From: an uncultured Methanoregula sp.
Lineage (GTDB): Archaea; Halobacteriota; Methanomicrobia; Methanomicrobiales; Methanospirillaceae
NCBI GenBank assembly: GCA_963662735.1
Contig: OY759744.1
Coordinates: forward strand, 970,153-1,034,152
DNA length: 64,000 nucleotides
Direction: 5' to 3'
A model generated the notes under the pieces. The model had not been told where the DNA came from. It was given only the letters and a program-made list of their open reading frames with translations, and searched no databases. This document shows positions 13,587-43,077 of the stretch, piece after piece. Within the stretch, counting starts at the first letter, position 1. Each line of letters starts with the position of its first letter. The position numbers were made by a program, and so were the translations under genes.

Positions 13587-13590
13587 TGGT

Positions 13591-22451: not shown

Positions 22452-22522
22452 CTCTTTATATTTTACGTATTTTTGATTTGTATCTTCCGAATACTGATAA
22501 ATAATTAAAACATAAGTTATAC

Positions 22523-22537
22523 GTTCAAATTTTGAAC
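22523..22537. promoter_or_regulatory. inverted repeat GTTCAAA-t-TTTGAAC in the divergent intergenic region
   Basis: 7-bp arms with a 1-nt spacer, between the PRTase-like gene and the wHTH gene. Candidate operator. Confidence 0.25.
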
Positions 22538-22740
22538 CTAATGCCCAAATAATAAACTATATAACCAGAAAAGAAGACATTATGGATAGACCTACTTTCA
22601 TGGTCGTGTTCCCATGAAGCCATGGGAGCAATCAGTAAAAAGTGGGACTATGACAACAACCTTCTCTCCAACTGAACCCCACAGTTTATGAGAAATCCGT
22701 ATGCGGGTTAGGTTAAGGAGACGTTGATAGATTGACATCT

Positions 22741-23025: not shown

Positions 23026-23035
23026 GCAGTGAGAT

Positions 23036-23818
23036 ATGGATACCTCTATTTTTCCCAAGTATGAGTACAAGGGGATTACCCATCCCCAGAAGACCATTCT
23101 TGTCGCGGTTTCCAAATATGCGGAGAGCTTCCTGCGGTTTGCTCCGCGGAAGATCCAGAATTTTCCCTCCCACGGGGTTGATCATTCTGTCAGTATCATC
23201 CGGATGATCAATTCCTTTCCTGAAGAATGGGGGATCAAACTTACGAGAACCGAGCGGTTCATTCTCTATGCAGCAGCATGGCTCCATGACATCGGCTGCG
23301 TGAAGGACCGGACCCCGCACAACAAGATCTCGGTTGACATCCTGATGAACAGCGAGAGCATCTGCGATTCCTTCAACCGCCTGGACAGCGACCTGCTCTT
23401 CATCCTTGAGTATGTCATCGAGAGCCACTCCTCATCGTATGACATCAGCACGGTCCCAGCGAAACGGGGAGCAGTACGGGTCCGTCTCATCTGTGCGATC
23501 TTCCGGCTGCTCGATGCGTGCGAGATCACGAACTTCAAGTGTCCTGCCTCGGTATATGCCGAGATTAAGGACGACCTGAAAACCCCGGATGGATCGGTTG
23601 ATACTGATGCTATCGAGTTCTGGGAAGGGCACATGAACATCAAAGATCTCGGGTTCTTCAAACCGGAGATTGTTGTTCTTGTCAATCATGCCCGTAAGAG
23701 CAAGAAGATCACGGACCGGCTGGTCAAGGAAATTGAATCTGTGCAGGAGATCTTTCGCGAGAATGGGATGGATGTGCCGGTTGTAAAGGTCAAGGCGAGA
23801 ACAGCTGGGATTGATTGA
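23036..23818 (+). CDS. HD-domain metal-dependent phosphohydrolase
   Basis: HGVDHSVSII ... AAAWLHDIGCV ... ESHSS ... FRLLDACE, an H..H / HD / H / D pattern. Starts 10 nt after the wHTH gene. Confidence 0.7.
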   Translation: MDTSIFPKYEYKGITHPQKTILVAVSKYAESFLRFAPRKIQNFPSHGVDHSVSIIRMINSFPEEWGIKLTRTERFILYAAAWLHDIGCVKDRTPHNKISVDILMNSESICDSFNRLDSDLLFILEYVIESHSSSYDISTVPAKRGAVRVRLICAIFRLLDACEITNFKCPASVYAEIKDDLKTPDGSVDTDAIEFWEGHMNIKDLGFFKPEIVVLVNHARKSKKITDRLVKEIESVQEIFRENGMDVPVVKVKARTAGID

Positions 23819-23841
23819 AAGAAAATTGGTAATTCAGAAAA

Positions 23842-24933
23842 TTACTCCAAATAAAACTGATCAATTAACGGAATATCTTTCTTTTTTAGATCAAAAAAGC
23901 TCTTGTATTGGTCATCAAGGTTATCATAATGGGACAATATCCAATCAACCAGACTATCCTGATCAATAAGTTTGATATTCTTTTTTCCCGAGGCCTCCGC
24001 CTCTTCAATGGCAGGTCTAGTAAATGTACCTATAGTAACAATTGCTCCGTGTTCATCCGTTCCAAGGGCACCCCGTAACTGAAGCACAACAGTATTACCA
24101 ATAGGTTTCGGAACCTGCTTTACTTGGACCTTTAAATCAAGGGTGACCAATTCAGTCGAAAGATACCCGTCTATATCAATTCCTTTATCGCCGACATATT
24201 GCCTGTTTGCTGCTTCGAAACCACTTATACTGAGTAAATGGGAGGTAAATTCTTCAAACTGTCTGGGGTTCATGCTCAACAAACGCTCTATGATACGACT
24301 ATGAATATCTTGTCCGGTTACTTGTGTTATTGGATTCTGCAGATTTGCCGAAGATTTCTCTGATATCAAGGATTCAACTTCGATCTTATGTTCTTCGAGA
24401 GATATAACTGTCAACCAGACAAGTGAGTTTTTCAGTTTAGTGGAAAGTTCCGAACGGGGTATTGATCGTACCCACTCAACATTCCGCCGGTTCGTATATG
24501 GGCATTTGTCACCCCAGTTTTCCTTCCACTGGTAATCACCGCTGATCCGACCGATGATCACTGATCGTTTCGAAGGATTGGGTAAAAGGAAGATATCGCC
24601 ATGTTTGATAGTTCGGACAAAACGGAGGATTTCACCACACTGGATCCCGACCTGGCTGTTGGTGACATTCTCATAGATGCGTTTATGGAGCACTTTCAGC
24701 TTTTTCAGTGCATCCTCTTCAGACGCTGATGATAGCAGCCAGCTGAGGTCCCCGAGTTCATTCCAACCAATGGCGATGAACTTTTTGGAATATCCTTCAT
24801 CGACATATTTTCCCCCCTCGCCAAGCCTGATGCCCCAGTATGCGGTCATGTGGATCAGAGGGGTATTGGTTAAAGGAGGATATAAGAGGATATCAAATCC
24901 ATTTTTTTGTGTATTTAGAATAGTTATACTCAT
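23842..24933 (-). CDS. Mrr-family (type IV) restriction endonuclease with an unassigned N-terminal domain
   Basis: The C-terminal FEEFTSHLL...GDKGIDIDGY...LKVQVKQ...LRGAL...GAIVTIGTFTRPAIEEA matches the Mrr catalytic core. The N-terminal ~170 aa carry a FIAIGWNELGDLS motif. Alternative start at ATG 24849. Confidence 0.75.
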   Translation of the reverse strand: MSITILNTQKNGFDILLYPPLTNTPLIHMTAYWGIRLGEGGKYVDEGYSKKFIAIGWNELGDLSWLLSSASEEDALKKLKVLHKRIYENVTNSQVGIQCGEILRFVRTIKHGDIFLLPNPSKRSVIIGRISGDYQWKENWGDKCPYTNRRNVEWVRSIPRSELSTKLKNSLVWLTVISLEEHKIEVESLISEKSSANLQNPITQVTGQDIHSRIIERLLSMNPRQFEEFTSHLLSISGFEAANRQYVGDKGIDIDGYLSTELVTLDLKVQVKQVPKPIGNTVVLQLRGALGTDEHGAIVTIGTFTRPAIEEAEASGKKNIKLIDQDSLVDWILSHYDNLDDQYKSFFDLKKKDIPLIDQFYLE

Positions 24934-25504
24934 CTAATAATTTCAAAATGGGTTTTTTAGGATTAATTACTTCAGTTTTTAATTGTTCAACTTGTTGTTT
25001 TGAAATCCGACTAAATTTTAAGTATTTTCCTGCGGGATCGTTTGAATAATGACAATGATACGCTCTCGCAATTTTATCATCCCAAATCGGGAAAAATGAT
25101 GGAGCTAATAGATGCAATGTCTTTGCAACAGATACCGGACTTCTCGATCCTTTTTTTGTGCCCTCCTCAATCTGAAGGGCAACCAAAAAATCCAGAAAAA
25201 TTAAACGCAACAATTTCTCATCTGATTCAGACAGGGTAGTTATCTCTCTATTTCTCAGGATAGTAAGTTTGTCAAAATGTTTAACGAGACATTGTTCTAA
25301 ATCATCAAAATTAAAAAACCCATAACGGTAGAAAGCTTGGTTCCAGGTTAAAAGCAAAACTCCCAAACCATCGGTCATATCGGTGAAATTTCCCCAATTT
25401 TCTTTGATCAATTTTGTTGCAACTTTATACATTGCATCTCGTTTTTCGTGTTTTTCAAATTCCTCACAACCCTTTTGGAATTCATCGAATTGAATTTTCA
25501 GCAT
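24893..25504 (-). CDS. hypothetical 203-aa protein
   Basis: AT-rich helical protein, family not recognised. Its ATG lies 6 nt downstream of the stop of an hsdS remnant. Confidence 0.55.
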   Translation of the reverse strand: MLKIQFDEFQKGCEEFEKHEKRDAMYKVATKLIKENWGNFTDMTDGLGVLLLTWNQAFYRYGFFNFDDLEQCLVKHFDKLTILRNREITTLSESDEKLLRLIFLDFLVALQIEEGTKKGSRSPVSVAKTLHLLAPSFFPIWDDKIARAYHCHYSNDPAGKYLKFSRISKQQVEQLKTEVINPKKPILKLLDEYNYSKYTKKWI

Positions 25505-25510
25505 AAACGA

Positions 25511-25663
25511 TCAAACCCCACCCGCCACCTGCTTGACCACCGCCCCCGCCAGCCGCGCCTGAACACCCGCCCTCTCTTTGAACTGTGATTCGAGGGCATC
25601 GCAAATACGGCGATCTTGTGTGCGCGAAAAGCTGGGTTCCAAATGAAGTTTCAGATGATGGAT
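25511..25663 (-). pseudogene. hsdS 3-prime remnant 1
   Basis: Hand translation gives IHHLKLHLEPSFSRTQDRRICDALESQFKERAGVQARLAGAVVKQVAGGV*. The intact HsdS C-terminus reads ...PHLNVGDVKNFQVPLPPLAEQHRIVAKVDALMALCDALESCLKERAGVQSKFATAVVKQIGSM*. The remnant is a GC-rich patch in AT-rich surroundings. Confidence 0.8.
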
Positions 25664-26072
25664 TTACTGACATTCCAAAGCTCTATCAATGAGATAATAA
25701 TATATTATTAATATGCCGAGCTCGACATTTCAGTTCATTATGAAGAATCCCCCAACAATTTGCTTAGGTGGGGGAATACTGCTGTCACTCGCTGGGAATC
25801 CTCTCGGGGGTGCGGCACTTATAGTGATCGGTGTGTTCCTTGCAATCGCGTAACTGACATAAATCCGAACCGTCGCTATTCACAAGGATATCGATTCTGT
25901 ACCTCTGGGATTAAATATCCGCCGAGCACTTTTTTTTACATCCTTCTCAACCTTCCCAGTATCGAACCGAAGGATGTTTTGATGGTATACCTCATCTGTG
26001 CGGAGAATTACGAGCCAGAACCAAGAATCATAATGAAGGGTTTTATAATTAATTATTTCCATTTAGATACTT

Positions 26073-26390
26073 ATGATCATTGGAACTGAAATGCCGACAG
26101 CAGAAAGGCAAACACTTGAAATAAAAGATGGGGAATTCATTCTCAAGAAAATCCCGCGAAGCGACACTGGAGGCGGGAGACTCAATATTGATAAAGTAAA
26201 TGAAAAATGGCATATACAACTTCATACTCCGAAGGGCGAAATTTATGATTTTATTCCGCTTCAATTCGACGATACAAAAATCAACGATGCAGTTTACATA
26301 AAAACAGCGCTAGAAAAGGAGGCCGGGGATGGGGGCGCTGACAAATTATTGATAATTGGTGGGGAACAAATGTGGAAAAAGCAAGAATAA
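26073..26390 (+). CDS. hypothetical 105-aa protein
   Basis: The only sizeable ORF between the two hsdS remnants, and on the strand opposite to its neighbours. No recognisable motifs. Confidence 0.35.
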   Translation: MIIGTEMPTAERQTLEIKDGEFILKKIPRSDTGGGRLNIDKVNEKWHIQLHTPKGEIYDFIPLQFDDTKINDAVYIKTALEKEAGDGGADKLLIIGGEQMWKKQE

Positions 26391-26417
26391 ACCAAAATTT
26401 TGATTAGTGCTTTAATA

Positions 26418-26565
26418 TCATCCCATCACCTGCTTCACCACCGTCCCTGCACTCCCGCCCTTGCTTGGAGTTGTGATTCAAGGGCTCGAAGAAACCTGAG
26501 GTTTCTTCTCAAGGCACAGAGCGCCACATCGCACAACGCCAATCTGCGTGTAATGAGGGCAACGA
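26418..26565 (-). pseudogene. hsdS 3-prime remnant 2 (frameshifted, interrupted by a hairpin)
   Basis: Reads ..LALCD-[hairpin insert]-ALESQLQARAGVQG, then a -1 shift, then TVVKQVMG*. A perfect 9-bp stem gaagaaacc-tga-ggtttcttc lies at 26488-26508. Confidence 0.7.
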
Positions 26566-26590
26566 AAACATGCGTATTGAAAAAGGGGGG

Positions 26591-27247
26591 TTACTGTTCT
26601 GCATCTTTCAGTCGTTCAAACTCCAAGCCGGGAATCTTGATTTTACTTGCAAAAGGTAATAAAAATAGCCCTAAAACAACTCCAATTAATGCAATTTGTT
26701 CCGTTTTTAAAACAAGGAAACCGGTAAGATTCAAGATTAAAATAACAAGGCTACCGAATCCGAGAATCCAACATACTAACTGAAAATTTTTAATTGCATT
26801 TTCCTTTTCATTTAACAACTCAAAAAGCGTTTTCTGACGGGCACTATTCTTTAAAATTGAAATTTTTGGGATTTGATCGGATGAGAAAAAATCATATGAA
26901 TCAGCATCATCAGGATCTTGTTTTATTCGAGTTATTTCCAACGGTGTGTCTTTACTTTCGTTAGGATAAACAACAAATAATGGAATATCTTGATTTTTCA
27001 ATAATGACGCATATCTTTTTAATTGAAATTCCGCATCTTTTTCACGTTTTCGGTCTTTTCGACTTTTTATTTCAAATAATGCAATGGGTTTGTTGAGGAG
27101 TTTATCGATGATAGCTAAATCCACACGATAATGATGCCCATTGGACTCAATTGGCCATTCAAGGGCGATTGAATCCTCGGAGACCCCTTGATGTTTTAGG
27201 GTTTCAATTAAAATATTAACAAGTTCTCTTTCGTGAAATTCTCTCAT
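26591..27247 (-). CDS. PD-(D/E)xK (HsdR-N-terminal-like) nuclease-fold domain fused to two C-terminal transmembrane helices
   Basis: The N-terminal HHYRVDLAIIDKLLNKPIALFEIKS gives a D...E-x-K arrangement. The C-terminal helices are WILGFGSLVILILNLTGFLVL and IALIGVVLGLFLLPFA. Its ATG lies 1 nt after the hsdS stop. Confidence 0.65.
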   Translation of the reverse strand: MREFHERELVNILIETLKHQGVSEDSIALEWPIESNGHHYRVDLAIIDKLLNKPIALFEIKSRKDRKREKDAEFQLKRYASLLKNQDIPLFVVYPNESKDTPLEITRIKQDPDDADSYDFFSSDQIPKISILKNSARQKTLFELLNEKENAIKNFQLVCWILGFGSLVILILNLTGFLVLKTEQIALIGVVLGLFLLPFASKIKIPGLEFERLKDAEQ

Positions 27248-27248
27248 A

Positions 27249-28877
27249 TTACATCGATCCTATTTGTTTTACTACGGCAGTAGCGAATTTACTTTGCACT
27301 CCCGCTCGCTCCTTCAGACATGATTCCAAGGCATCGCACAACGCCATCAGCGCATCAACCTTCGCGACGATGCGGTGTTGTTCGGCGAGCGGGGGGAGAG
27401 GGACTTGAAAATTTTTCACATCTCCCACATTTAAATGAGGTGATGAAGTTCCGCCAGTCTGCTCTTTTACTTTCATTTGCACAAATGGGGAATTTAATAA
27501 AATTAAAATATATTTTGGAATTGCTTTTTTTGGATTGACTCTTAGGAGCATCATCCGTTGGCCTAAACACGTTTTCAATCCTTTCGGGATCATACAAGCA
27601 ATCCCTAAAATTCCTCCCTCTCTACTAAACAAAATATCATTTTCACGAGGCTCTAATCTTGAAATTCTTTCAAGATATGTATCATGCGAAACATACCTTA
27701 CTTCAGTTAGATCCAAATAACCCGGTTTAAAATTTGTCGTACGTAAACAAATCTCCCCATTTTGAGTCCATTTTGGTGTGGAGTGCGGACAATCAACAAT
27801 GGTCTCACACACCCCGTTAATGTTATCCCATTGCCAAGATTGTGGAATATTTAAACGATATCCAATATCTGTAGAATCCTCTTTGACAAAAGAAACAAGA
27901 GGGATGCTTGATCCCTCATCTTTCGGCTTTAGTATTAACCGTCCTTGGATCGCCATTTGTAAAATTGTCTCCCGAAGCATCCTGGCATTCTCCGGGCAGT
28001 CAAAGATCAACTCAAAAGCATCACACACCTGCGCCCATTGCCGTTCAAATTCCTCCGGACTCTCTGAACTCTGCAATGCTATGAGACTCGCAGTCCCAAG
28101 CCGGAGGCTGACTGCCCGCTCCTGCAGTTGTTGAAATTCGATTTCATCACACAACGCCATCAGCGCTTTAATTTTAGCAATAATGCGATGCTGTTCAGCT
28201 AGAGGGGCAATTGGAATAAGGGTATTATTAGCAAAACTAAGATTTATCCCCCCCTGGGCAGCGCCTTTAAAATTTTCGAGTATTCGTGTTTGACCGATTT
28301 CAGAATACAGGTAATAAAAAGCAAATTGAGGAGTAATAAAATCATAAAAACGGCAAATAAAAACATGCTCATTAATGCATGCTTCGGAGAATGGAAATCT
28401 GGAATCAACAAGAGAGACCTTACCGGTTGTTGCACCATCTTTTACAATGAGAAGATCTCCTGTCCGGATTTTTCCTTTTGTCATTTTTTGATAAAACTCA
28501 GGAGAAACGAATTTAATTGTACCAAATCTGAATCCCCCCCTTCCATCAAGATGCTCCCCACCTATACTAGGTATACCTGATTTGATCTCTCTTACTCCAC
28601 CTATTGGTCTCGAACCGGATTCTATAGATGATAAAACGTCAATTAAGGGCAATTGAATCCAGGATTTTGGGAGAATATGTGACTCATCCTCGGAAATATA
28701 CTGAAACTCCTTATGTAATGATGTCTCTATCATTTTTTTCGCGAACTCATCATTTGCATCTTGGGTACCAAGCCTTCCTGAAAAAGCTAAATCGAGGATT
28801 AGATTTCGTAGCTGGGCGATGCCCTCCGGGGCAGTGGCGAGCGTGGTGAACCGCTCGAATAGGAGATCGGTGCTCAT
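27249..28877 (-). CDS. hsdS: Type I restriction-modification specificity subunit HsdS
   Basis: 542 aa with two AT-rich target-recognition domains. These are separated by conserved coiled-coil repeats: central LAPLAEQHRIIAKIKALMALCDEIE and distal LPPLAEQHRIVAKVDALMALCDALE. Confidence 0.93.
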   Translation of the reverse strand: MSTDLLFERFTTLATAPEGIAQLRNLILDLAFSGRLGTQDANDEFAKKMIETSLHKEFQYISEDESHILPKSWIQLPLIDVLSSIESGSRPIGGVREIKSGIPSIGGEHLDGRGGFRFGTIKFVSPEFYQKMTKGKIRTGDLLIVKDGATTGKVSLVDSRFPFSEACINEHVFICRFYDFITPQFAFYYLYSEIGQTRILENFKGAAQGGINLSFANNTLIPIAPLAEQHRIIAKIKALMALCDEIEFQQLQERAVSLRLGTASLIALQSSESPEEFERQWAQVCDAFELIFDCPENARMLRETILQMAIQGRLILKPKDEGSSIPLVSFVKEDSTDIGYRLNIPQSWQWDNINGVCETIVDCPHSTPKWTQNGEICLRTTNFKPGYLDLTEVRYVSHDTYLERISRLEPRENDILFSREGGILGIACMIPKGLKTCLGQRMMLLRVNPKKAIPKYILILLNSPFVQMKVKEQTGGTSSPHLNVGDVKNFQVPLPPLAEQHRIVAKVDALMALCDALESCLKERAGVQSKFATAVVKQIGSM

Positions 28878-30331
28878 CGTGTATTCCTAGTAGGTGTCCC
28901 GAGCAATGCCATCAGTTCCTGCTTCAGCGCTTCACGGGCCATCTCTGCTTCGACCCTAACCCTCTCATACTCGCGGAGCAGTTCTTCAGGATCGCCTTGT
29001 TTGTCCGGCACAATGTTTGGGTTCTTTATGTCGAGGTTAAATCCGTTCGCAATAATCTGCTCTATCGACACCCGCCATGCATGCTCGTTCTCGGTGCGGT
29101 TCGTCCACCATGCCTTCTCAGGTTCGAACTCTGCTATCCGGATCGGCTTTGTCTTTGAGTACGACTTATAGCCCTCGGGATAGGTGTGTTCATAGTACCA
29201 GATTTCTTTTGTAGCCTTGCCTTTCTCGAAGAAGAGGAGGTTCGTTCTCGTTGGGGTATATGGGGCAAAGACATTTTTGGGCAATCGAATTATGGTATGG
29301 AGGTTGCATTCGGTCAGGAGTTTCTCCTTGATCCGGCTCTTCACACCCTCGCCAAAGAGCGTTCCGTCGGGGAGCACGATCGCGGCCCGGCCGCCATCTT
29401 TGAGGATGTGCATGATCAGGACAAGGAAGAGATCGGCCGTCTCCCGGGTCTGGTACATGGACGGGAAGTTGGTCTCGATCCCGTCCTCCTCCATGCCGCC
29501 GAACGGCGGGTTCGTCACGATCACATCTACCCGGTCCCGTGCCGAGTAATCCTTCAGCGGGCGGGCAAGGGTGTTGTCATGCTTGATCTGGATCGGGACA
29601 TCGATGCCGTGCAGCATCATGTTCGTGACGCAGAGCAGGTGCGGCATCGGCTTCTTCTCGACCCCGTGGATCGAGTTCCGGAGCAGTTCCTCGTCTTTCG
29701 GGTTCTTAACCGTTTTCCGGATATTCTCGATGGCACAGGCAAGGAACCCGCCGGTACCGCAGGCCGGGTCAAGGATCGACTCGCCAAGCTTCGGGTCCAC
29801 CTGATCCACCATGAACTGCGTCACGGCCCGGGGTGTGTAATACTCCCCGGCATTGCCCGCACTCTGGAGGTCTTTTAAGATCTTCTCGTAGATCTCCCCG
29901 AACAGGTGACGATCCTCGGTCTTGTTGAAATCGATCTCATTGATCTTGTTCGCAACCTGGCGGATCAGCGTCCCGTTCTTCATGTAGTTGTACGAGTCCT
30001 CGAAGACCTTGCGGATCAGGATCCCGGAACCATTGAGGCCCGCTTCCGCAGGGAGTTCTTTGAGGGTCGGGAAGAGGTCGGCATCAATGAACTTCAGGAG
30101 CACGTCGCCTGTGATCCCCTCGGCATTGCCCGCCCAGTTCCGCCACCGGAGCCGTTCCGGCATCGGCGACCGGTACCCCTTCTTCATCAGCTCGTACTCT
30201 TTTTCCTTGTCATCGAAGATCTTCAAAAAAAGCATCCAGCCGAGTTGGCTGATCCGCTGGGCGTCGCCATCGACCCCTGCATCCTTCCGCATGATGTCCT
30301 GGATCGTCTTGATCGTGGTTCCGACTGCCAT
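28874..30331 (-). CDS. hsdM: Type I R-M DNA methyltransferase subunit HsdM (N6-adenine)
   Basis: HsdM N-terminal domain, SAM motif DPACGTGGFL and catalytic NPPFGG. Overlaps the hsdS start by 4 nt. Confidence 0.95.
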   Translation of the reverse strand: MAVGTTIKTIQDIMRKDAGVDGDAQRISQLGWMLFLKIFDDKEKEYELMKKGYRSPMPERLRWRNWAGNAEGITGDVLLKFIDADLFPTLKELPAEAGLNGSGILIRKVFEDSYNYMKNGTLIRQVANKINEIDFNKTEDRHLFGEIYEKILKDLQSAGNAGEYYTPRAVTQFMVDQVDPKLGESILDPACGTGGFLACAIENIRKTVKNPKDEELLRNSIHGVEKKPMPHLLCVTNMMLHGIDVPIQIKHDNTLARPLKDYSARDRVDVIVTNPPFGGMEEDGIETNFPSMYQTRETADLFLVLIMHILKDGGRAAIVLPDGTLFGEGVKSRIKEKLLTECNLHTIIRLPKNVFAPYTPTRTNLLFFEKGKATKEIWYYEHTYPEGYKSYSKTKPIRIAEFEPEKAWWTNRTENEHAWRVSIEQIIANGFNLDIKNPNIVPDKQGDPEELLREYERVRVEAEMAREALKQELMALLGTPTRNTR

Positions 30332-30361
30332 AAAAAATTCAGCTCCCTCGTATTCGTGCCG

Positions 30362-32665
30362 TCAGCACTCGGCGGTATAGAGACACCGTTCGAGCCGGCG
30401 TATTGCTTCCATATAGTTGGCGCTCCCGCCAAAAATAGTGTTCACAATCTCCATCGGTGTACCGAAGGTTGTGAACGGATCCACCTTCAGCACTTCCATG
30501 TTCTCAATATCGCCGATCCCGCCATCGGAGTATTTCGACAGGAGGGCATCCAGTACCTTCCGTGCCTTGTCGCCGTACTTCGTGAAGTAATCCGCTTTCC
30601 GGACCTTTGCTGCCCGTTCCCTGCGGGACAGGGGTGGCTGGCCGAAGACCACGTGGCAGATCAGGTCGAAGGGATCGTAGTCCTTCCCCACCTGCTCCTG
30701 GAGCGCCTCGAAGAGTACGCCTTGCTCCTCCAGTTCCTCCAGGATCACCGTCTTCTGCTCCGCCTTCGTCCACGAACTCATGAACGCATTCAGCGTAGCA
30801 TACTGCCGGGTCACATTCTTCTTCGTATAATCTTCCAGCGACTCCGTGATCAGCTTCCCGTCGGCCGCCATGTACTGGACGCGCTCGGCAACCACAGAAA
30901 CCGGCACATCGTTCACCACGTACCGCCTCATCCCGTCTCCCGGTGGCTTGGGTGCGGGAGGATCAATCGGATCGGTCGGGTCGTACTGGCTCCCGTCAAG
31001 CGGTTCGCCGTCAAAGTCCGGGTCGGCAAAGAGCTCGCTCACCTTCCGGAAGTCCATGATCGTGAAGAAGAACTTGTTGTAATCCTCGTTGATCCGGGTC
31101 CCCCGACCGATGATCTGCTTGAATTCGGACATCGATTCGATCCGTTTGTCGATCACGATCAGCTTGCAGGTCTGGGCATCCACGCCGGTCCCCATCAGCT
31201 TCGAGGTGGTTGCAATGACGGGATACTTGGAATCCGGCATGATGAAGTTGTCCAGTTCTGCCTTCCCGTCCGGGCTGTCGCCCGTGATCCGGACAACATA
31301 CCTGCCGTTCTCCTTCACCAGATCCGCGTTCTCGTTCACGAGACAACTCCGCATTCGTTCGGCGTGATCGATATTCTCGCAGAAGACGATCGTCTTGTCG
31401 TACCTGCCGGTGTTCTTGAGGAAATCCGAGATCTTCCGGGCCACGAGTTCCGTACGGTGCTCTAGGACAAGGCTCCGGTCGAAGTCCTTCTGGTTGAAGA
31501 TACGGTCCTCGATCTCCACGCCGTACTTGTCCTTCTGCCCCCGGGTTGGTCGCCATCCCTGCAAATCCTTGTCCAGATCGATCCGGTACACCCGGTACGG
31601 GGCAAGGAACCCGTCTTCGATCCCCTGCTTCAGTGAATATTCATACACGGGCTTCCCGAAATAATGGACACTGGAGACGTACTTCGTCTCCTTCGGGGTC
31701 GCTGTCAGCCCGATGTGGGTAGCCGATGAGAAATAGTCGAGGATTTCCCGCCACATCGCATCGTCCGCAGCACTTCCCCGGTGGCATTCGTCGACAATGA
31801 TCAGATCAAAGAAGTCCCGGGAGAACTGCTTGTAGATGTTGCGCTCCTCCTCGTTGCCGGATACTGCCTGGTAGAGTGAGAGATAAATCTCGTAACTCTT
31901 GTCCACCTGCCGGTTCGCGATCTTCGTCATTGCCGACCCGAACGGCTTGAAATCGTTCGTCTTGGTCTGGTCGACAAGGATATTCCGGTCCGCAAGGAAC
32001 AGGATACGCTTCTTGGTGCCGGACTTCCAGAGCCGCCAGATGATCTGGAATGCCGTATAGGTCTTGCCGGTCCCGGTGGCCATCACGAGCAGGACCCGGT
32101 CCTTTCCGTTCGCAATCGCCTCGATTGTCCGGTTGATCGCGTTTATCTGGTAATACCGGGGCATCTTCCGGATGTCGTCGATATAGTAACTCTGGGTGAT
32201 GATCTGCTCTTTTTTGTCGTCGATCCCTTTCCATTTCCGGTACCGGGTCCAGAGGTCAGTGGGGCGGGGAAATTCGGTAAGTGAGAGTTCCCTCTCCATG
32301 GGCTCATAATTGCCGGAACGGTCGTGCAGCAAAAACCCGTCACCATTGGAACTGAACACAAACGGGATATCCATCATTTCTGCATAGGCAAGAGCCTGCT
32401 GCATCCCGGCTCCCACGATATGCGTGTTGTCCTTTGCCTCGATCACGGCAATCGGCAGATTCTGTTTATAGTAAAGAATATAGTCCGCCCTTCGCGGCTT
32501 GGCGCGGCTCACGGAGTTGCCATTCACAAGAACCCGGCCATCGGTGACGTTCACCTCTTCCCGGATCTGGTGATGGATGTCCCAGCCGGCCTGGGTCAGT
32601 GCGGGTGTAATGAATTTGGTGCAGATGTCCCGCTCCGTCAATGCCTTCTTGTCCAGTCCAACCAT
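30362..32665 (-). CDS. hsdR: Type I restriction enzyme R subunit HsdR (EcoEI-like C-terminal domain)
   Basis: N-terminal PD-(D/E)xK (ADYILYY...IAVIEAKD), helicase motifs (MATGTGKT, DECH), and an EcoEI_R_C-like C-terminus. The ORF track start 32692 is TTG, and I prefer ATG 32665 (MVGLDKKALTERDICTKFITPAL). Confidence 0.93.
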   Translation of the reverse strand: MVGLDKKALTERDICTKFITPALTQAGWDIHHQIREEVNVTDGRVLVNGNSVSRAKPRRADYILYYKQNLPIAVIEAKDNTHIVGAGMQQALAYAEMMDIPFVFSSNGDGFLLHDRSGNYEPMERELSLTEFPRPTDLWTRYRKWKGIDDKKEQIITQSYYIDDIRKMPRYYQINAINRTIEAIANGKDRVLLVMATGTGKTYTAFQIIWRLWKSGTKKRILFLADRNILVDQTKTNDFKPFGSAMTKIANRQVDKSYEIYLSLYQAVSGNEEERNIYKQFSRDFFDLIIVDECHRGSAADDAMWREILDYFSSATHIGLTATPKETKYVSSVHYFGKPVYEYSLKQGIEDGFLAPYRVYRIDLDKDLQGWRPTRGQKDKYGVEIEDRIFNQKDFDRSLVLEHRTELVARKISDFLKNTGRYDKTIVFCENIDHAERMRSCLVNENADLVKENGRYVVRITGDSPDGKAELDNFIMPDSKYPVIATTSKLMGTGVDAQTCKLIVIDKRIESMSEFKQIIGRGTRINEDYNKFFFTIMDFRKVSELFADPDFDGEPLDGSQYDPTDPIDPPAPKPPGDGMRRYVVNDVPVSVVAERVQYMAADGKLITESLEDYTKKNVTRQYATLNAFMSSWTKAEQKTVILEELEEQGVLFEALQEQVGKDYDPFDLICHVVFGQPPLSRRERAAKVRKADYFTKYGDKARKVLDALLSKYSDGGIGDIENMEVLKVDPFTTFGTPMEIVNTIFGGSANYMEAIRRLERCLYTAEC

Positions 32666-32710
32666 CCCGTGATTCTTCTGTATCTCTGACAATCCGCTAA
32701 TACCTTTCTA

Positions 32711-32718
32711 TTTAAATA
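32711..32718 (-). promoter_or_regulatory. candidate TATA box for the hsdRMS operon
   Basis: tttaaata lies 46-53 nt upstream of ATG 32665. Confidence 0.3.
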
Positions 32719-32780
32719 AAAATCCGCCATGAAACTCAACCATTCTATTCCACCGCACCAAAGCAACCCTTCCCATTTTC

Positions 32781-33202
32781 CAGCCAGACCCTGCTTCAAA
32801 AATTCCAGTCGCGATCACGATCCCGATCAAAAACCGTTCGCAGATCAATCGAACCTTGATTTGAAATTTTCAATCAAACCTTGATTAAAAAATTTCAACC
32901 AGACTTTGATTGAAAATTTTTCAGCGAACCTTGATTGAAAAACCGCACTCGCGATCCCGCGTCCGTCGTGAACTGGAAAAATAAACGTATGCACAAGTGG
33001 TTAACTTTTCACAACCAGACCTTGATTGAAAATTTTCAGGCAGACTTTGATTTTTATTTTTCAATCAAGCTTTGATTTCAAAATGTTAATCGCGATCATG
33101 ATCGCGATTGAAAAACCGATCCGGATCAATCAAACCCTGATTTGAAATTTTCAGTTAAACCTTACTTGAAAAATTTTAACCGGACTTTGATGACAAAAAG
33201 TT
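32781..33202. repeat. array of eleven degenerate ~25-bp AT-rich units (CA-N5-6-A[CT][CT]TTGATTGAAAATTTT)
   Basis: Units by eye: 32781-32805, then four contiguous at 32841-32944, three at 33010-33087, and three at 33127-33202. No ORF covers this region. Confidence 0.85.
33088..33109. repeat. perfect 22-bp palindrome AATCGCGATCATGATCGCGATT
   Basis: Its reverse complement is identical. Related CGCGATC elements occur at 32808-32830 and 32948-32961, each between blocks of the 25-bp units. Confidence 0.85.
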
Positions 33203-33394: not shown

Positions 33395-34642
33395 ATGGAC
33401 CGGCTGACGCTGCGCAATGTCCTTCTGTATTTTACGGTCGACATCGGCACGTTCGTCTCGATCTGGTTCTTTGATCTCACAACGGCACTTATCACCTATA
33501 CCCTGACCAAGTCCCCGGTGTCCCTCGGCATCGTGGGGTTTGCCCAGAATATCCCCTTCCTCCTGTTCAGCCTGTACGGGGGCGTCATCGCAGACCGGCA
33601 TGACCGGCGGCGGGTAGTACTGTTCTTCAACTCCTGCCTGTTTCTCGTCACCCTCACCGCGCTCGCCCTCCAGCTGCTGCATCTCCTGACCTTTCCGCTC
33701 ATCATCGTCCTCTCGCTCACCTACGGGACCATCTGGGCCCTTAACCTCCCCTCGATGCTCGCGCTCGTAAAAGACATTGTTACCGATGAGCACGAATTCG
33801 CCCGGGTGATGGGTGCCGCCGCCTCCAACGGGAAGATCGGGCAGATGGGTGCCGCATCGGTATTCGGGTACATCTATGCCACATTCACGGCAGCCGGAGT
33901 CTTTGTTGCGGGACTCTGCTTCAACGCGATCGCGTTCGTTGCCATACTGCTGGTGAAAACGAAAGCGAGGATTGTGCAAAAAACCACAAGCCCCCTCCGC
34001 GAGCAGATCACCACGGGGTTACGGTACGTGACTGTCCATCCCCCGCTCCTGATGGTGATCATGCTGGTAACCGTCGTCAGCACGGTCTTTGCCTTTGTCC
34101 TGTTCCAGTTTCCGGTGATCGATGCGGATTTTCTCCACGGCAATAAACTATTCTTAAGCGCCCTGTACTTCGCCGGCGGGTTGGGCGGGCTTACCTCCGG
34201 GCTTTACCTGGTCAGGCGCAAATCCCCGCGGGGAATTCTCTGGTTCATGGTGTTCTGCACCGTACTGAGCGGGGTCTCGGTCATTGTGCTCGGGAACTCC
34301 CGGGATATTTTCCTTTCAGCGATCTGCGCTGCAGGGATCGATTTCGCATTCATCGGCACGATGGGGGTATCGAACACGGTCCTCCAGCTGCTCACCGACG
34401 ACGAACGGAGAGGCAGGGTTCTTGGCATCAACACTATGGGGGCCTGGGGGATCATGGCGGTCATGATCGTTGTTCTCGGGGCCATTGCAGGCGCGTGGGG
34501 AATCACCTTCGCCCTGACCCTTGCCGGGCTGCTCTGTTTTGCCGCGGCAGGGATGTACCTCGTGCTGCTCCCGTGGCAGCGGCCCCGGTTGAGGGCTCTC
34601 TCTGCTGAACGGGGGATCGGCCCGGCCGATGAATTGATCTGA
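33395..34642 (+). CDS. MFS transporter
   Basis: About 415 aa with 12 predicted hydrophobic helices and a GGVIADRHDRRR loop motif between TM2 and TM3. ATG 33395 is used. Confidence 0.8.
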   Translation: MDRLTLRNVLLYFTVDIGTFVSIWFFDLTTALITYTLTKSPVSLGIVGFAQNIPFLLFSLYGGVIADRHDRRRVVLFFNSCLFLVTLTALALQLLHLLTFPLIIVLSLTYGTIWALNLPSMLALVKDIVTDEHEFARVMGAAASNGKIGQMGAASVFGYIYATFTAAGVFVAGLCFNAIAFVAILLVKTKARIVQKTTSPLREQITTGLRYVTVHPPLLMVIMLVTVVSTVFAFVLFQFPVIDADFLHGNKLFLSALYFAGGLGGLTSGLYLVRRKSPRGILWFMVFCTVLSGVSVIVLGNSRDIFLSAICAAGIDFAFIGTMGVSNTVLQLLTDDERRGRVLGINTMGAWGIMAVMIVVLGAIAGAWGITFALTLAGLLCFAAAGMYLVLLPWQRPRLRALSAERGIGPADELI

Positions 34643-34711: not shown

Positions 34712-36646
34712 TCACTCCCCCGGCCCCTTCACCTCTGCCTCCCGCTTGAACGGCCGGTACACCACCCCTCCCCCCTCGTAGAACTTCGAGAAGAACTCGA
34801 CGAGGTGGAGACGCACCGAATGGATCGAAGGGGAGAACATGGCAAGGACGAGATTGAGTGCATGCAGCAGGATGGCGACGATAATGCCGATAAGAGCAAT
34901 CCCGAACGCCCCCCCGAGCCGGTTTGCCACCATCGCGAGGATCACTGAAGCCATGCCGATCGCCATCAGCCGGGCATAGGAGAGGATGTTGCCTACCGTG
35001 CTCATCACCTCGATCGTCCCGAAAACACCGGCTCCCATAAGGATCATGGGCATCCCGACAACCATGATGACGACCACCGGGTAGATCGCAGCATCGGGGA
35101 CTATATTGGCGAGCATGCCGACAAGGACGATGATGCCGGTGATCACGAGGAGCATCCCGCACTTCTCGAGCAGGTGTTTCTTCTTCTTCATGATCAGTGC
35201 GTTCCGTATCCCGATGAAGAGGCCGAGGAAAACATGGATGACACCGATCGCGATGGCGAATATGAGCATCGGGATCATTGCGTCCACCCGGTTCCAGGTG
35301 ATGCCGAGGAAGGTTACCGGGTGGATCCAGCCCATCGTCTCTCCCAGGTCCCCGAAGAACTCCCCGAACAGGAACCCGAAGAAGATGGTCGGGATCGATG
35401 AGATGATCAGGATATCGGCAAGGTTTTTCGCAAACGCAATTACCTGGTACCGGTGCCGGATAACGAGTGCAAACGCGAGGATGAGAAGGCCGTACCCGAT
35501 ATCGCCGACCATGATCCCGAAGAAGAGCGGGAAGAAGATGGCAAGGATGGGGGACGGGTCAACTTCCCGGTACCGCGGCGGTGCAACGAGCTGCATGATG
35601 AACTCGAAGGGTTTGACCCACCACGGGTTGTCGTAAAAGACCGGGGCGTTATCCAGGTCCTTCTCCGTCACCGGCAGCCCGTGGATGATCACCCGATCCC
35701 CAAACGAGTCCTTCACGGCCTTCCTTGTCCGGTTAAGATATTTTTTCGGGATCCATCCCATGATAACGAAGGTGTATTCCGACAGCCCGAAGTTCCGGTA
35801 CGCGTTCAGTTCCCCGTGTATATCTTCGAGCTGCTTTTTGAGGACAACAAGTTCCTGGTACCAGGTGACCGAAAGGGCCAGGAGTTCCGCTTCGATGCGG
35901 GTTATCTCGTCTTGCGCACGGATCCGCTTCTCCTCGATAAGCGCGTACATCTCGTAAAAAGGCCTGCCGGCAAATTCCGCAGGAAGCCGCACTTCGTTCA
36001 CGTTCACGGAGTAGATGAAGGAATGGACTGCCTCGGAATATTTCTTCGGGAAGACCATGATGGCGGCGAGGGTTGCGGCATCGACTGCGGCAGAGCTCAT
36101 CTCGAACCGGTTGCCGGTGATGGTATCCAGCTCTTCCTTGATCAGCGCGAGAACGTCCCGGTGCTCCTCCTGGATGAGGAGGATCGTGACTTCGAACCCC
36201 TCCAGGGCGGGCAGTTCCTTCTCCACCGGCTGGATGATATTGAGGACTCTCGCGTACCGGCCCAGCGTGGTGATCGAGAGGGAGAGCTCGGCTTTCTTTG
36301 CAGAGAGTTCCCGGGTCGTTGTCTCAAGGGTGCGGATGATCTCCCGTGCCCGCGCAATGAGCCCGGCATGCGTCCGGTTCTCCAGGGACATGCGGAGTTG
36401 CGCCTGGAGGCCCGGATCATCCGCAATAACAGGCAGGGTGGAGAAGATCGCGCCGATCCTCCCGAGGACCCCGGCTATATCCTCGGTCTCGTCCTGCCCG
36501 AGCCGGTCCAGGTGGATCTCGTCCGGATGGATGATCGCCGGTGCATCTTCAAGATGAATCGTGCCGGCCCGGTACAGGACGTCGACCACCCGGCCCAGAT
36601 CCTCTTTAGGCCCGATTACCTGGATGCGTTCCATCTTCTGGAGCAT
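34712..36646 (-). CDS. atpI: A1AO ATP synthase subunit I (a)
   Basis: 644 aa. MLQKMERIQVIGPKEDL... soluble N-terminal half plus a multi-TM C-terminal half with conserved Arg (ILSYARLMA). Confidence 0.92.
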   Translation of the reverse strand: MLQKMERIQVIGPKEDLGRVVDVLYRAGTIHLEDAPAIIHPDEIHLDRLGQDETEDIAGVLGRIGAIFSTLPVIADDPGLQAQLRMSLENRTHAGLIARAREIIRTLETTTRELSAKKAELSLSITTLGRYARVLNIIQPVEKELPALEGFEVTILLIQEEHRDVLALIKEELDTITGNRFEMSSAAVDAATLAAIMVFPKKYSEAVHSFIYSVNVNEVRLPAEFAGRPFYEMYALIEEKRIRAQDEITRIEAELLALSVTWYQELVVLKKQLEDIHGELNAYRNFGLSEYTFVIMGWIPKKYLNRTRKAVKDSFGDRVIIHGLPVTEKDLDNAPVFYDNPWWVKPFEFIMQLVAPPRYREVDPSPILAIFFPLFFGIMVGDIGYGLLILAFALVIRHRYQVIAFAKNLADILIISSIPTIFFGFLFGEFFGDLGETMGWIHPVTFLGITWNRVDAMIPMLIFAIAIGVIHVFLGLFIGIRNALIMKKKKHLLEKCGMLLVITGIIVLVGMLANIVPDAAIYPVVVIMVVGMPMILMGAGVFGTIEVMSTVGNILSYARLMAIGMASVILAMVANRLGGAFGIALIGIIVAILLHALNLVLAMFSPSIHSVRLHLVEFFSKFYEGGGVVYRPFKREAEVKGPGE

Positions 36647-38551: not shown

Positions 38552-39088
38552 ATGGCACAAACGGGTGGGAAGATTCACATTGCAGATGAAGCGATCCTGG
38601 AACAGATCGCGGCCCTGGGCGATCCGGTAATTGACCGGCGGCATGAGGCGGTATCGGCGCTGAGGGAGATCGGCGAACCTGCGGTTGCCCCGCTGATAGC
38701 AGCGGCCGCGGAGGCTCTGGACAATGACCGGCGCTGGTACGCCTCGGTGGCACTCTCGCGGATCGGTGAGCCCGCCATCGCCCCGCTGATAGCAGCGATG
38801 CAGGACAACACCTCGCGGGAGTTCCGCAAGTATGCCGCTGCTGCCCTTGGCGAGATCGGTGTCCCGGCCATTGAGGCCCTGATCGACGGGATGGGAAGCA
38901 ACGACCGGGAGCTCCGGGGCTTTCTCTCGCAGGCACTCTGCCGGATCGGCAAGCCCGCCGTGGAACCGCTCACCCGCCGGCTCAGTGATGCCAACGAGAT
39001 CATACAGCAGTGCGCCACCCTCACGCTCTGGCAGATGGGGGAGACCGGCCTTCCGTCGATGGTCGAGAAGATGCAGGAAGAGGAGTAA
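38552..39088 (+). CDS. HEAT/PBS-lyase-like repeat protein (short)
   Basis: 178 aa from ATG 38552, with five repeats of ..R..A..AL..IG.PA(V/I).PLI.A. Confidence 0.8.
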
Positions 39089-39165
39089 CCGCTCCCGGCC
39101 GGTACCGCTTTTTTAATGGGTCCGTATCCGAACCAATAAATCCCCTCCCGGAGAATCCTACCGGT

Positions 39166-42100
39166 ATGCTTGAGCTCTCGCCCGTGATGCAGGCTTACGA
39201 GAAGTCCTTGCTGGACGAGCTGCACCGCACCATAGCGATAGCAAAGGAGGCCCGGTCCCGGGGTCTCGACCCGACGCTTGATGTGGAGATCCCGATTGCA
39301 AGCGATCTTGCCGACCGGGTTGAAGCACTCCTGAATATCAAGGGGGTTGCGGCCCGCATCCGGGAGCTCGAAGCGGAAATGTCCCGCGAGGAGGCCGCTC
39401 TCCGGATCGGTGACGACTTCGTTGCCCGGAAGTTCGGGGAAAAAGACATCATGGAGGTGCTCGACCACGCGATCCGTGTCTCGATGGCACTCCTGACCGA
39501 AGGGGTCGTTGCCGCACCAACAGAAGGGATAGCAAAGGTTGCGCTTGGCAAGAACGATGACGGGACGCAGTACCTGATGATCTTCTATGCAGGACCGATC
39601 CGGAGTGCCGGGGGTACTGCGCAGGCCATGTCCGTGCTTGTTGGCGACTATGTGCGCCAGAAACTCGGGATCAACCGCTATATCCCGCGGCAGGAGGAGG
39701 TGGAGCGGTATATCGAGGAGATCCGGCAGTACAACTCCATCATGAACCTCCAGTACCTGCCCAGCGAGGCCGAGATCCGGCTCATTATCGAGAACTGCCC
39801 GGTCTGTGTTGATGGCGAAGCAACCGAGCAGGAAGAGGTCTCGGGCCACCGCAACCTCGAACGGGTGGAGACGAACGTTGTCCGTGGTGGCATGGCGCTC
39901 GTTATCGGGGAAGGTATTGCCGGCAAGGCCCGGAAACTCAAGGGCCGGGTCGAGAAGATGAAGATGGAGGGCTGGGACTGGCTTGACAAGCTGATCGCCG
40001 GGGCAGCAAAGAGCGGCGACGACAAGACGGTGGGTATCAAGCCGCTCGACAAGTACCTCCGCGATCTCATCGGCGGCCGGCCGGTCTTTGCCTACCCGAT
40101 GCGCAAAGGCGGGTTCCGGCTCCGGTACGGGCGGTCGCGGAACACCGGGTTTGCCGCAGCAGGAATGCACCCGGCCACCCTGTACATTCTCGGCGAATTT
40201 CTCGCAACCGGCACCCAGATGAAGACCGAGCGGCCGGGCAAGGCCTGCGGGGTGGTGCCGGTCGACTCCATCGAAGGCCCGACCGTGCGGCTCAGGAACG
40301 GTGACGTGCTCCGGATCGATGACGAGGCAACAGCAAAGCGGCTGAATGCCGGGATCGAGAAGATCCTCGATGTCGGCGAGATCCTCATCTCGTTCGGGGA
40401 GTTCCTGGAGAACAACCACCCGCTGATTCCTGCAGGGTACTGTGCGGAATGGTGGCAGCTTGATGCCGGTCCCGAAGTAAAACCTCCCGCAACCGAGGAG
40501 GAGGCGCTGGCCTTTGCCCGTGCCGGGGGCTATCTCCACCCGGCCTGGACCTGGTTCTGGGACGACGTTACCGCCGACCAGATCCGGGAACTTGCCGATG
40601 CCGTATCCGGCAAAGGATCGATCGCAGACGGGGTTCTCCGGCTGCCCCTTGAACCGGCAACCAAGACTTCTTTCGAACTCCTCCTCATCCCCCACACGGT
40701 GAACGGGGAATCTGTCGAGATCGCATCCTGGAAGGCGCTCGCTGCCTGCCTCGGCCTGGACGAGAACCTCAAAAAACGCGATGCCTGGGCAACCGCCGGG
40801 GACAAAGCCCCGCTCGACCTGGTCCTGCACCTGGCCGGTTTTGCGATGCGGTCCCGGTCCGGCACAAGGATCGGAGGCCGTATGGGCCGCCCGGGGAAGT
40901 CCAAGCCCCGGAAGATGAATCCTCCCCCGCATGTCCTCTTCCCTCTTGGGGACTCGGGAGGTGCACGGCGCTCGTTCCAGTCAGCCTCCGCCCACACCGC
41001 CGATGTGGATCAGGCTATCACCGATCTCGATTTCCAGAAAGAAGGGGGTATCATCGAGATCGAGGTGGGCCGGCGCCGTTGTTCGGAGTGCGGGGAGATC
41101 AACTATCTCAACCGGTGCGAGAAGTGCGGGGGACATACCGTCGCGTTCTTCATCTGTACCAAGTGCGGGAGGGAGACAACGCTCCCCCGTTGCCCGGGCT
41201 GCGACGGCCAGGTTGTCTGCAGCCAGCGGATCACCCTGAACGTGAAAGGCGAGTACGCAAAAGCCATGGACCGGCTGGGGATCAGGAGCGAAAGCGTTGC
41301 TCTTGTCAAAGGGGTCAAGGGGGTTATCTCCCGCGAGAAGACCGTGGAGACGATGGAGAAGGGGATTCTCCGGGCCATCCGGAACATCTTTGTCTTCAAG
41401 GACGGCACCACCCGCTTCGATATGATCGACCTCCCCCTCACCCACATCCGTCCCGATGAAGTCCGGGTTTCTGTCGAGAAGCTCCGTTCCCTGGGATACA
41501 CGAAGGATACGAGGGGCTATGATCTCCAGAACCCGTCGCAGGTGGTGGAGCTCCATCCGCAGGATCTCCTGGTGTCCGATTCCTGTGCCGAGTACATGGT
41601 CAGCGTGGCGCAGTTCATGGATGACCTGCTCGTGAAATGTTACGGCCTTCCCCCGTTCTACAACATCACCAAACCCGAGGAGCTTGTCGGCCACCTCGTC
41701 ATCGGCCTTGCCCCGCACACGAGCGCCGGCGTCCTTGCCCGGATCGTCGGGTTCACGCGGGCGAACGTCGGCTATGCCCACCCGTTCTTCCACGCTGCCA
41801 AGCGCCGGAACTGCTTCTACGGGGATACGGAGGTCGATGTCTACGATGGCCGGCACTGGGTGAAAACCCCGATCCGGAAATTCGTTCTCGAAAATTTTGA
41901 CCTCAGCCGTCCGGGTATCGACCGGCTCGGGACGTACTACTCGGATCCTGCCAGCCCGTTCTTTACCCGGGCCGTGGATACGAACGGGATAATGCATCTC
42001 CGGAAAATTACATCGGTTTCCATTCACCGTTCACCCGCGGCCCTGATCCGGTTCACGACAGCCCGGGGCCGGGAACTCGTGGTCACTCCCGATCACGCGA

Positions 42101-43077
42101 TGCTTGTCTGGGATACGAGTTACCTGCGGAAGATCCGGGCCGTGGAACTCAAAGCCGGCGATGCAGTCCCCGTCTTCGAGGGCTCGTGTGTCATTTCGGA
42201 CCGGATAACGCTTACCGAACCGGTGCCGGCTCCCGAGGAGCGGGTCTACTGCCTGACCGTTGCGGAAGATCACACGATGACGGCCAATGATATCTTTACC
42301 GGCCAGTGCGATGGCGACGAGGACTGCATCATGCTCCTTCTCGACGGGCTCATCAACTTCTCGCGCTCGTTCCTGCCGCAGAACCGGGGCGGGTCGATGG
42401 ACGCCCCCCTCGTGCTGACGAGCCGGATCGATCCGGCCGAGATCGACAAGGAAGCCCTCAACGTGGATGTCTGCGACCATTACCCGATCGAAGTCTATAC
42501 GGGCGCCCTCACGTATGTTGAGCCAAAGACAATTGCCGGGCTCATCGACCGGGTCGAGAAACGGATCGGCACTCCCGCCCAGGTCGAAGGCTTCCAGTTC
42601 ACCCACGACACCTCGGACATCTCCGCCGGGCCTATCGAATCGATGTACACCCAGATGAAGACGATGACCGACAAGCTCGGGGCCGAGCTCGACCTTGCCG
42701 AGAAGATCCGGGCCGTGGATGCCGATGATGTTGCAGAACGGGTGCTCAACACCCACTTCATCCGCGATCTCATGGGCAACCTATCGGCCTTCTCCAAGCA
42801 GAAGTTCCGGTGCACGAAATGCAATACCAGTTACCGCCGGATGCCGCTTTCCGGCAAGTGCACCAAGTGGCGGGGCAAGGGTTTCTGCAACAGCCCGCTC
42901 ATCCCGACCGTGCACGAAGGCTCGGTGAAAAAATACCTGGAAATGTCCCGGGAGATCTGCCGGAAGTACAAGGTCTCGGAGTACACCAAGCAGCGGGTCG
43001 AGGTCATCGATCTTGCCATCACCTCAACCTTCGGGGAAGAGAAGCAGCAGCAGCTGGGCCTTGCGGATTTCATGTAA
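39166..43077 (+). CDS. polC: DNA polymerase II (PolD) large subunit DP2, intein-containing
   Basis: Conserved DP2 blocks throughout, Zn-finger cluster CSECG...CEKCG...CTKCG...CPGCD, and active-site region ...HAAKRRN / [14 protein letters not shown] split by an insert. ATG 39166 is used. Confidence 0.93.
41812..42306 (+). mobile_element. 165-aa mini-intein inside PolD DP2
   Basis: The insert CFYGDTEV...[10 protein letters not shown]...DIFTGQ sits between RRN and CDGDED. It begins with Cys, carries a TxxH block B and is followed by Cys(+1). No homing-endonuclease domain is present. Confidence 0.8.

Follow-up and report, generated by a model that had tools for sequence, protein, structure and literature searches.

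In the genome of an uncultured Methanoregula sp., the gap between hsdR, the last gene of an accessory and defense block, and an MFS transporter gene is occupied by 25-bp repeat units interleaved with GATC-rich palindromes. Such an array raises two questions: what it is, and whether it belongs to the accessory block that it borders. A preliminary description had likened it to iteron, centromere-like, or origin-type repeats placed exactly at the edge of the accessory DNA. Here, we examine the array in the window (the whole 64,000-nucleotide stretch that was analyzed, to which positions refer unless a locus is named) together with related loci from other genomes and metagenomes. The gene content of the window is archaeal and methanogenic (PolD DP2, an A1Ao ATPase operon, CofD, and HMG-CoA reductase), and homologs of its AtpI protein (34712-36646) are 66 to 85% identical, most of them named Methanoregula.

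Architecture of the array

The array extends over 32782-33202 (Table 1). The eleven 25-bp units that had been proposed, grouped 1+4+3+3 with GATC palindromes between the groups, are borne out by their TTGATT anchors, by TRF, and by PWM scoring. In ten of the units the anchors follow one another at a step of exactly 25 bp inside each group, TRF gives a period of 25 at 32845-32941, and the eleventh unit is a degenerate one centered at 32789. The perfect 22-bp palindrome and the motif said to recur three times at the group ends (AAAAACCG, at 32829, 32938, and 33111) were likewise recovered; the 630 bp given for the gap between hsdR and the MFS gene rests on maximal open reading frames and becomes 729 bp with the likely ATG starts. 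The array also contains a higher-order duplication, in which 32775-32910 matches 33056-33191 (136 nt, 75% identity) at a spacing of 281 bp.

Chance is no explanation for this arrangement, given that the 17-mer core has 5 matches with at most 3 mismatches where 0.17 are expected, that a PWM search of the 64 kb returned this one array only, and that the array region, folded as single-stranded DNA, has a z score of -6.0 against shuffles. The array is thus confirmed as real and nonrandom. GATC occurs 9 times in it against 1.4 expected from base composition, a richness that is special only in part, since the whole window is 2.7-fold enriched (654 GATC sites versus 245 expected). The window-wide excess hints that this methanogen lacks GATC restriction or has a Dam-like system.

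Table 1. Coordinates of the array modules, the flanking genes, and the insertion sequence found in related elements.
Feature	Position	Strand	Remarks
hsdR, last gene of the accessory block, left flank	30362..32665	-	Pfam; likely ATG at 32665
u0, degenerate terminal unit	32782..32806	+	PWM score 20; element end fades, not sharp
P module, degenerate copy CGCGATCACGATCCCGATC	32810..32828	+	three GATC at 6-bp spacing; inverted-repeat partner of 33086-33113
AAAAACCG and degenerate q (TTCGCAGATCAATC)	32829..32850	+	P-24-q-13-u geometry
u1-u4, four 25-bp units	32847..32946	+	centers 32854, 32879, 32904, 32929; TTGATT at 32856, 32881, 32906, 32931; TRF, PWM
c-T linker, 66 bp, GC-richer	32947..33012	+	length fixed, sequence variable; u-37-c-37-T-17-u
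c motif TCCGTCGTGAA	32962-32972	+	within the c-T linker
T motif GGTTAACTTTT	32999-33009	+	within the c-T linker
u5-u7, three 25-bp units	33013..33087	+	centers 33020, 33045, 33070; TTGATT at 33022, 33047, 33072; PWM; 58/58 identical block common with the orthologous L289 copy
P module, perfect 22-bp palindrome AATCGCGATCATGATCGCGATT	33088..33109	.	highest-copy part of the family
GAAAAACC, q module, and AATC	33110..33131	+	q = GATCCGGATC at 33118-33127
u8-u10, three 25-bp units	33128..33202	+	centers 33135, 33160, 33185; TTGATT at 33137, 33162, 33187; decay toward the end; PWM
MFS transporter gene, right flank	33395..34642	+	likely ATG at 33395
IS copies in related elements	L018:5744-6748; L289:8045-9048		also in L178, L192, L220, L226/L243, L236, L287

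The 25-bp period holds as first described, and the unit is better understood as a 15-bp quasi-palindrome (AAnCARAC-YTTGATT) joined to a 10-bp A/T spacer of the A4T4 type. Its oriented consensus is TTTTCAAnCAGACYTTGATTGAAAA, and the dyad positions C-4 and G+4 are 95 to 96% conserved. The sequence TTGAAAATTTTCAA, centered on the A/T spacer, resembles an Lrp/AsnC box (FL11/LrpB type); conservation there is lower than in the CAGAC-YTTG core, and we retain the resemblance only as a lead. The two palindromic modules, P (consensus CGCGATCAYGATCGCGATTG, kept in 32 modules from relatives) and q (GATCCGGATC), are both GATC-rich and perfectly symmetric.

From an alignment of 46 distinct full elements we drew a canonical element of about 400 bp with the module order u-P-q-u-u-u-u-c-T-u-u-u-P-q-u(-u), in which the higher-order period of 281 bp corresponds to P-q-u4-c-T-u3-P. 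The spacing between modules (P-24-q-13-u-25-u-25-u-25-u-37-c-37-T-17-u-25-u-25-u-28-P) is near base-exact across species, and within one element the u, P, and q modules keep a single orientation rather than alternating. In the conservation profile of the 46 elements, terminal inverted repeats are absent and the similarity tapers off on either side. The element has a GC content of 38%, compared to 55% for the genome, and carries a mean of 6.0 runs of five or more T residues on its forward strand and 3.8 on its reverse strand. Some lineages have a variant made of two 140-bp halves, and at one locus (L107:3460-4430, NZ_JBAZQA010000001.1) three near-identical copies of the whole 281-bp unit lie in tandem, showing that elements lengthen through unequal exchange not only with the 25-bp period but also with the higher-order one.

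Spread and copy number

When representative genomes were scanned for YTTGATT repeated three times with a 25-bp period, the same architecture was found at 20 loci in Methanoregula, Methanoregulaceae, and unclassified Methanomicrobiales, among the matches listed. Further matches in Methanosarcina, Methanimicrococcus, and Methanobrevibacter were rejected as family members, being unrelated tandem repeats in which TTGATT recurs every 25 bp by chance. A metagenome search with the P-q pattern (GATYGAAAANNNGATCCGGATCAA) returned at least 120 loci, and about 100 of those listed bear at least three units. Judged by these matches, the family is restricted to the Methanoregula/Methanoregulaceae lineage. 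The P-q pattern had no match in IMG/VR, the 48 matches of the three-unit pattern there include none belonging to the family, and blastn searches of PLSDB and phage records gave no match; a viral or plasmid origin of the element was rejected on the basis of these searches.

We estimated copy number in this genome from the summed depth of 138 contigs of an isolate-like run that aligned to the array region at 80% identity or more. Depth rises from about 300 in the unique flanks to about 12,600 at 33044-33111, which corresponds to about 40 copies of the u-P-q part at that identity, versus about 3 to 4 genomic copies of the c-T linker. The contigs often end inside the array. The family is therefore a dispersed one with tens of copies per genome. 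The preliminary description had supposed a repeat with a positional link to the accessory DNA, and in the face of a genome-wide family its specific, island-tied readings fail.

Placement among genes

Elements of this family lie mainly downstream of genes, at convergent junctions. According to a codon-usage gene caller trained on the Pfam-supported genes of the window, on which the orientation statistics rest and which disagreed with Pfam at one locus at least (L060), the flanking gene is directed toward the element on 55 of 75 sides after loci were dereplicated by flank-protein cluster (left, 25:11; right, 30:9); before dereplication, the 33 arrays with genes called on both sides comprise 21 at convergent and 1 at divergent junctions. 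The copy in the window, which lies between divergent genes, is atypical. The orientation of the element shows no preference relative to flanking transcription (6 loci are +,+ and 5 are -,-), and side and orientation are constant within each flank cluster, as for the 7 loci at atpI and the 7 at UbiA. An earlier reading as a promoter or regulator, with the array co-oriented with and upstream of the next gene, had come from about 16 loci and naive longest open reading frames; it was overturned by the larger dereplicated sample.

The gene contexts in relatives number more than 70 and are mainly housekeeping (ThiC, GluRS, aEF2, HypD, FEN1, UvrA, UbiA, and a CDF transporter, for instance). The 74 flank clusters contain 106 Pfam families, none of which recurs except generic methyltransferase domains on 3 clusters, and no RAYT (IS200/IS605-type Y1 transposase) is among the families listed for these flanks. 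The X/Y genes of the accessory block (19583-20931, minus strand) were considered as a cognate binder and rejected, as they represent one of more than 70 contexts and are without a Pfam domain. They consist of two open reading frames that overlap by about 70 bp, which may reflect a frameshift or miscalled starts, and they also occur beside family elements in L077, L092, and three metagenome loci.

The atpI/atpD junction and the accessory block

In the window, atpI (34712-36646) is split from atpE-C-A-B-D (11638-17413) and converges on atpD, and a V-ATPase_G_2-like gene accompanies the split atpI in relatives. Two other Methanoregula lineages (L290-L293) have atpI and atpD in convergent orientation only 17 to 47 bp apart and no array between them. 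The array directly follows atpI in L019 and L289, and L029 has the order atpI-array-STAS-atpD; in none of these three does an MFS gene separate the array from atpI, as it does in the window. The array does stand at the edge of the accessory block, as had been noted, and abuts the roughly 14.7 kb inserted between it and STAS. Among relatives, the array is present but the island absent in L029 and L019, and the junction is empty in L290-L293. This presence/absence polymorphism, with filled junctions in the window, L289, L029, and L019 and empty ones in L290-L293, indicates that the element is core DNA whose presence varies, by gain or loss, at a convergent junction that tolerates it. We accordingly read the array as part of the core genome, with the R-M/Mrr island and the MFS gene inserted on either side. 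The junction as a whole has repeatedly gained repeat elements, STAS, MFS, IS copies, and islands.

The accessory block spans 18000-32700, next to STAS (17431-17979), with its lowest GC content at 21000-29000. It encodes a response regulator with PAS domains, X/Y, HD-CE, Mrr, an HSDR_N-like open reading frame, and type I hsdS/M/R; the Mrr and HD-CE segment has 35 to 44% GC, and the borders of the block contain neither an integrase nor a tRNA gene. The hsdR promoter box (TTTAAATA, at about 32712-32719) lies outside the array. Beside the array in L289, only the hsdR promoter and the first 25 or so codons are kept, and DUF4268 and RhuM genes come next; this arrangement is suggestive of cassette-like exchange, as is typical of a shuffling defense locus. 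Elsewhere in the window, the PolD DP2 open reading frame (39010-43077, 1,355 amino acids) has a weak Intein_splicing match at residues ~999 to 1054 that splits the catalytic domain, and the same faint signal is present in L290/L291. A cluster of archaeal DUF7289, DUF7266, and DUF7287 genes (45426-48612), followed by a 1,087-amino-acid VWA/Big_1 surface protein (49402-52665), may be a pilus- or adhesin-type locus unrelated to the array.

Sequence constraint and a targeting insertion sequence

The array of the window and its ortholog in L289 share 78% identity and include blocks in which 58/58, 48/49, and 24/24 positions are the same, compared to 64% identity at the 4-fold degenerate sites of the adjacent atpI gene. 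The comparison indicates that the element is under sequence constraint stronger than that on synonymous sites, although part of this constraint could stem from gene conversion or recent transfer rather than from function. Orthologous P modules (L018/L097) are near-identical, whereas paralogous P modules within one MAG differ, a pattern that points to purifying selection rather than to transposition bursts or concerted evolution; concerted evolution was rejected as the source of conservation on these grounds.

An IS of about 1,005 bp, which encodes a DDE_Tnp_1 transposase and is bounded by inverted termini of 12 bp (GCTCTGTAGAAA...TTTCTACAGAGC), sits in the A/T spacer of the unit, between GAAAAATTTT and AAAAATTTT, at no fewer than nine independent loci (Table 1), where about 8 bp of the target is duplicated. 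By analogy with IS1397 and ISKpn1 in REP sequences, this IS seems to be one that targets repeats. REP elements are targeted by IS1397, ISKpn1, and IS621 (PMC2817692).

Proposed function and alternative explanations

The explanation that we favor, with confidence somewhat above even, is that the array is one copy of a lineage-specific, BIME-like interspersed mosaic repeat that would serve as a phased multisite platform for protein binding. The near base-exact geometry, the constraint, and the dedicated IS together imply that something reads the sequence. The likeness to binding arrays that was first proposed survives to this extent, in that ordered, dyad-symmetric, operator-like sites are a reasonable reading of the array, and fails where it made them an island-linked iteron, centromere, or origin. 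One or more dimeric DNA-binding proteins would recognize the units, P, and q as operator-like sites and load on them cooperatively. As 25 bp is about 2.4 helical turns, successive dimers would be rotated by about 135 degrees, so that the filament would be wrapped or superhelical. Such a complex would assemble at the ends of transcription units and act there as REP/BIME sequences supposedly do, in nucleoid organization or supercoil management, and the T runs on both strands would halt read-through transcription. Oligo-T terminates transcription in archaea; with its many T runs and low GC content, the element should be a bidirectional stop for archaeal RNA polymerase. Counting against this explanation are the dispensability of the element at atpI/atpD in two lineages, the divergent context of the copy in the window, and units that are direct rather than alternating.

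A more far-reaching version, which we advance tentatively, is that each Methanoregula chromosome carries, where transcription units end, some 20 to 40 "landing pads" on whose 25-bp lattice a putative dedicated DNA-binding system would form superhelical filaments; the element would be maintained by purifying selection and would have evolved independently of bacterial BIMEs. The GATC palindromes might then be nucleation sites or methylation-sensitive switches, and the whole might be a chromosome-organizing or supercoil device that provides loop anchors, gyrase or SMC sites, or insulators.

We think it rather unlikely that the family is instead a purely selfish, nonautonomous element (MITE/BIME-like) without host function, dispersed through recombination or the action of a transposase in trans, with palindromes that are transposase recognition sites, and tolerated at gene 3' ends. 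Its discrete canonical size and module order would fit such an element, as would the presence/absence polymorphism at the orthologous atpI/atpD site, the 3'-end bias and near-absence from divergent promoter regions, the restriction to a single lineage, and the variable DNA adjoining the copies in the window, L289, L220, and L092. However, the 46-element profile is without terminal inverted repeats or sharp termini, and no transposase recurs among the 74 flank clusters. Paralogs within a genome have moreover diverged, with c-T linkers below 80% identity in most copies and differing P variants, and the conservation of orthologous copies beyond that of synonymous sites is the reverse of a recent-burst pattern. 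The filled and empty sites differ by extra genes (STAS, MFS, and island) and so offer no clean junction at which a target-site duplication could be defined. An RNA-level role, as a 3'-untranslated-region or terminator cassette with hairpins or as a small RNA across the variable linker (running from the T motif, whose reverse strand AAAAGTTAAAC is BRE/TATA-like, to a GGTTTTT run), seems improbable. It would be in keeping with the location at gene 3' ends, the numerous T runs on both strands, the strong self-complementarity (z = -6), the excess of G-T over A-C pairs on the forward strand, and the conserved T and c motifs that bracket a sequence of fixed length and variable composition. A transcript-borne function is nevertheless opposed by the lack of orientation preference relative to flanking genes and by the absence of covariation, A-C combinations at dyad positions being observed 20 times against about 17 expected. 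RNAalifold found 0 consensus pairs in the linker, Rfam gave no match at the gathering threshold and only chance-level ones at an E value of ≤1, and C/D boxes are absent; a structured RNA, small RNA, or C/D-box guide in the linker was rejected on the basis of these Rfam, folding, box-motif, and covariation results.

The role suggested first, as an origin, a plasmid-type iteron set, or a partition centromere of the accessory block or the chromosome, is in our estimation very improbable indeed. AT-rich direct repeats with internal dyads do recall sopC, parC, and iteron layouts, GATC sites cluster as they do in bacterial oriC, and an island adjoins the array, with polD DP2 at a distance of 6 kb. 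Yet about 40 P-q modules are present in this genome and more than 70 gene contexts in relatives; no orc1/cdc6, rep, or par gene, and likewise no whiP initiator gene, was found among the Pfam-scanned open reading frames of the window or in the flanks of relatives' arrays; and, as set out above, the orthologous site is empty in some lineages, others have the array without the island, and the element is absent from the virus, plasmid, and phage collections searched. Nor does the unit consensus contain the ORB/mini-ORB core, a TTCC...GAA dyad (for example, TTCCAGTGGAACT; PMC1904270).

Comparison with known systems

The closest analogue that we find is the REP/BIME class of enterobacteria and pseudomonads, although we do not claim membership in REP/BIME proper. 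Both are multicopy, species- or genus-specific, extragenic mosaics of palindromes with fixed spacing, both are found chiefly at transcription-unit 3' ends, and both are targeted by dedicated IS elements. REP/BIME sequences are thought to bind IHF, gyrase, and Pol I and to affect termination and chromosome organization (PMC2817692). The Methanoregula element differs in being archaeal, in having 25-bp units that are all direct instead of alternating, and in its 281-bp composite period with two extra GATC palindromes and a variable linker of fixed length. It numbers tens of elements per genome (hundreds of units), compared to hundreds of elements for REP/BIME, and has neither a RAYT or cognate transposase in the 74 flank clusters nor a GTAG-type REP head.

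Plasmid centromeres and iterons share with the element direct repeats that contain a putative binding dyad and a nonintegral helical phasing conducive to a wrapped filament. In F sopC, R1 parC, and pSK41 parC, head-to-tail repeats each contain a dyad-symmetric protein site; elements of this type are single-locus, sit next to the par or rep genes of a replicon, and are indispensable to it. In contrast, copies of the Methanoregula element are scattered over the chromosome between housekeeping genes, no par or rep gene is linked to them, and some lineages do without the copy at an orthologous site. The ORB/mini-ORB clusters of archaeal oriC are similar as groups of short repeats in AT-rich intergenic euryarchaeal DNA, and in Thermococcales oriC polD is nearby, as in the window, but the element here has no ORB core and no adjacent orc1/cdc6, occurs at tens of loci, and is missing from an orthologous locus. 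Mycobacterial MIRUs are oriented with transcription and contain small open reading frames coupled to the flanking genes. They resemble the element in forming short intergenic tandem arrays at tens of loci in core operons, with copy number that varies among strains; the element differs in a 25-bp period that is not a multiple of 3, in showing no orientation bias, and in its higher-order mosaic.

Literature searches by topic and by the unit core sequence returned no description of the element, nor is it described in a published survey of satellites in prokaryotes, which includes Methanoregula boonei and M. formicica. The 141-bp "satellite families" of Methanosphaerula and M. boonei were considered as an earlier description and set aside, being coding NHL-like repeats that are unrelated. 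We know of no comparably structured repeat family from archaea. As far as we could find, this variant of a familiar kind of genomic element has not been described before.

Implications

Several practical consequences follow for the study of Methanoregula genomes. These elements break short-read assemblies, they mark junctions at which islands and rearrangements gather, and in annotation they risk being mistaken for origins, iterons, or CRISPR-like arrays. In broader terms, interspersed mosaic repeats with protein-binding and chromosome-organizing roles are classic in bacteria and still poorly understood. The rigid geometry and constraint of the element described here imply a putative reader protein, and the element thereby offers a concrete bait for what may be a new DNA-binding or nucleoid system of archaea in an environmentally important genus of methanogens.
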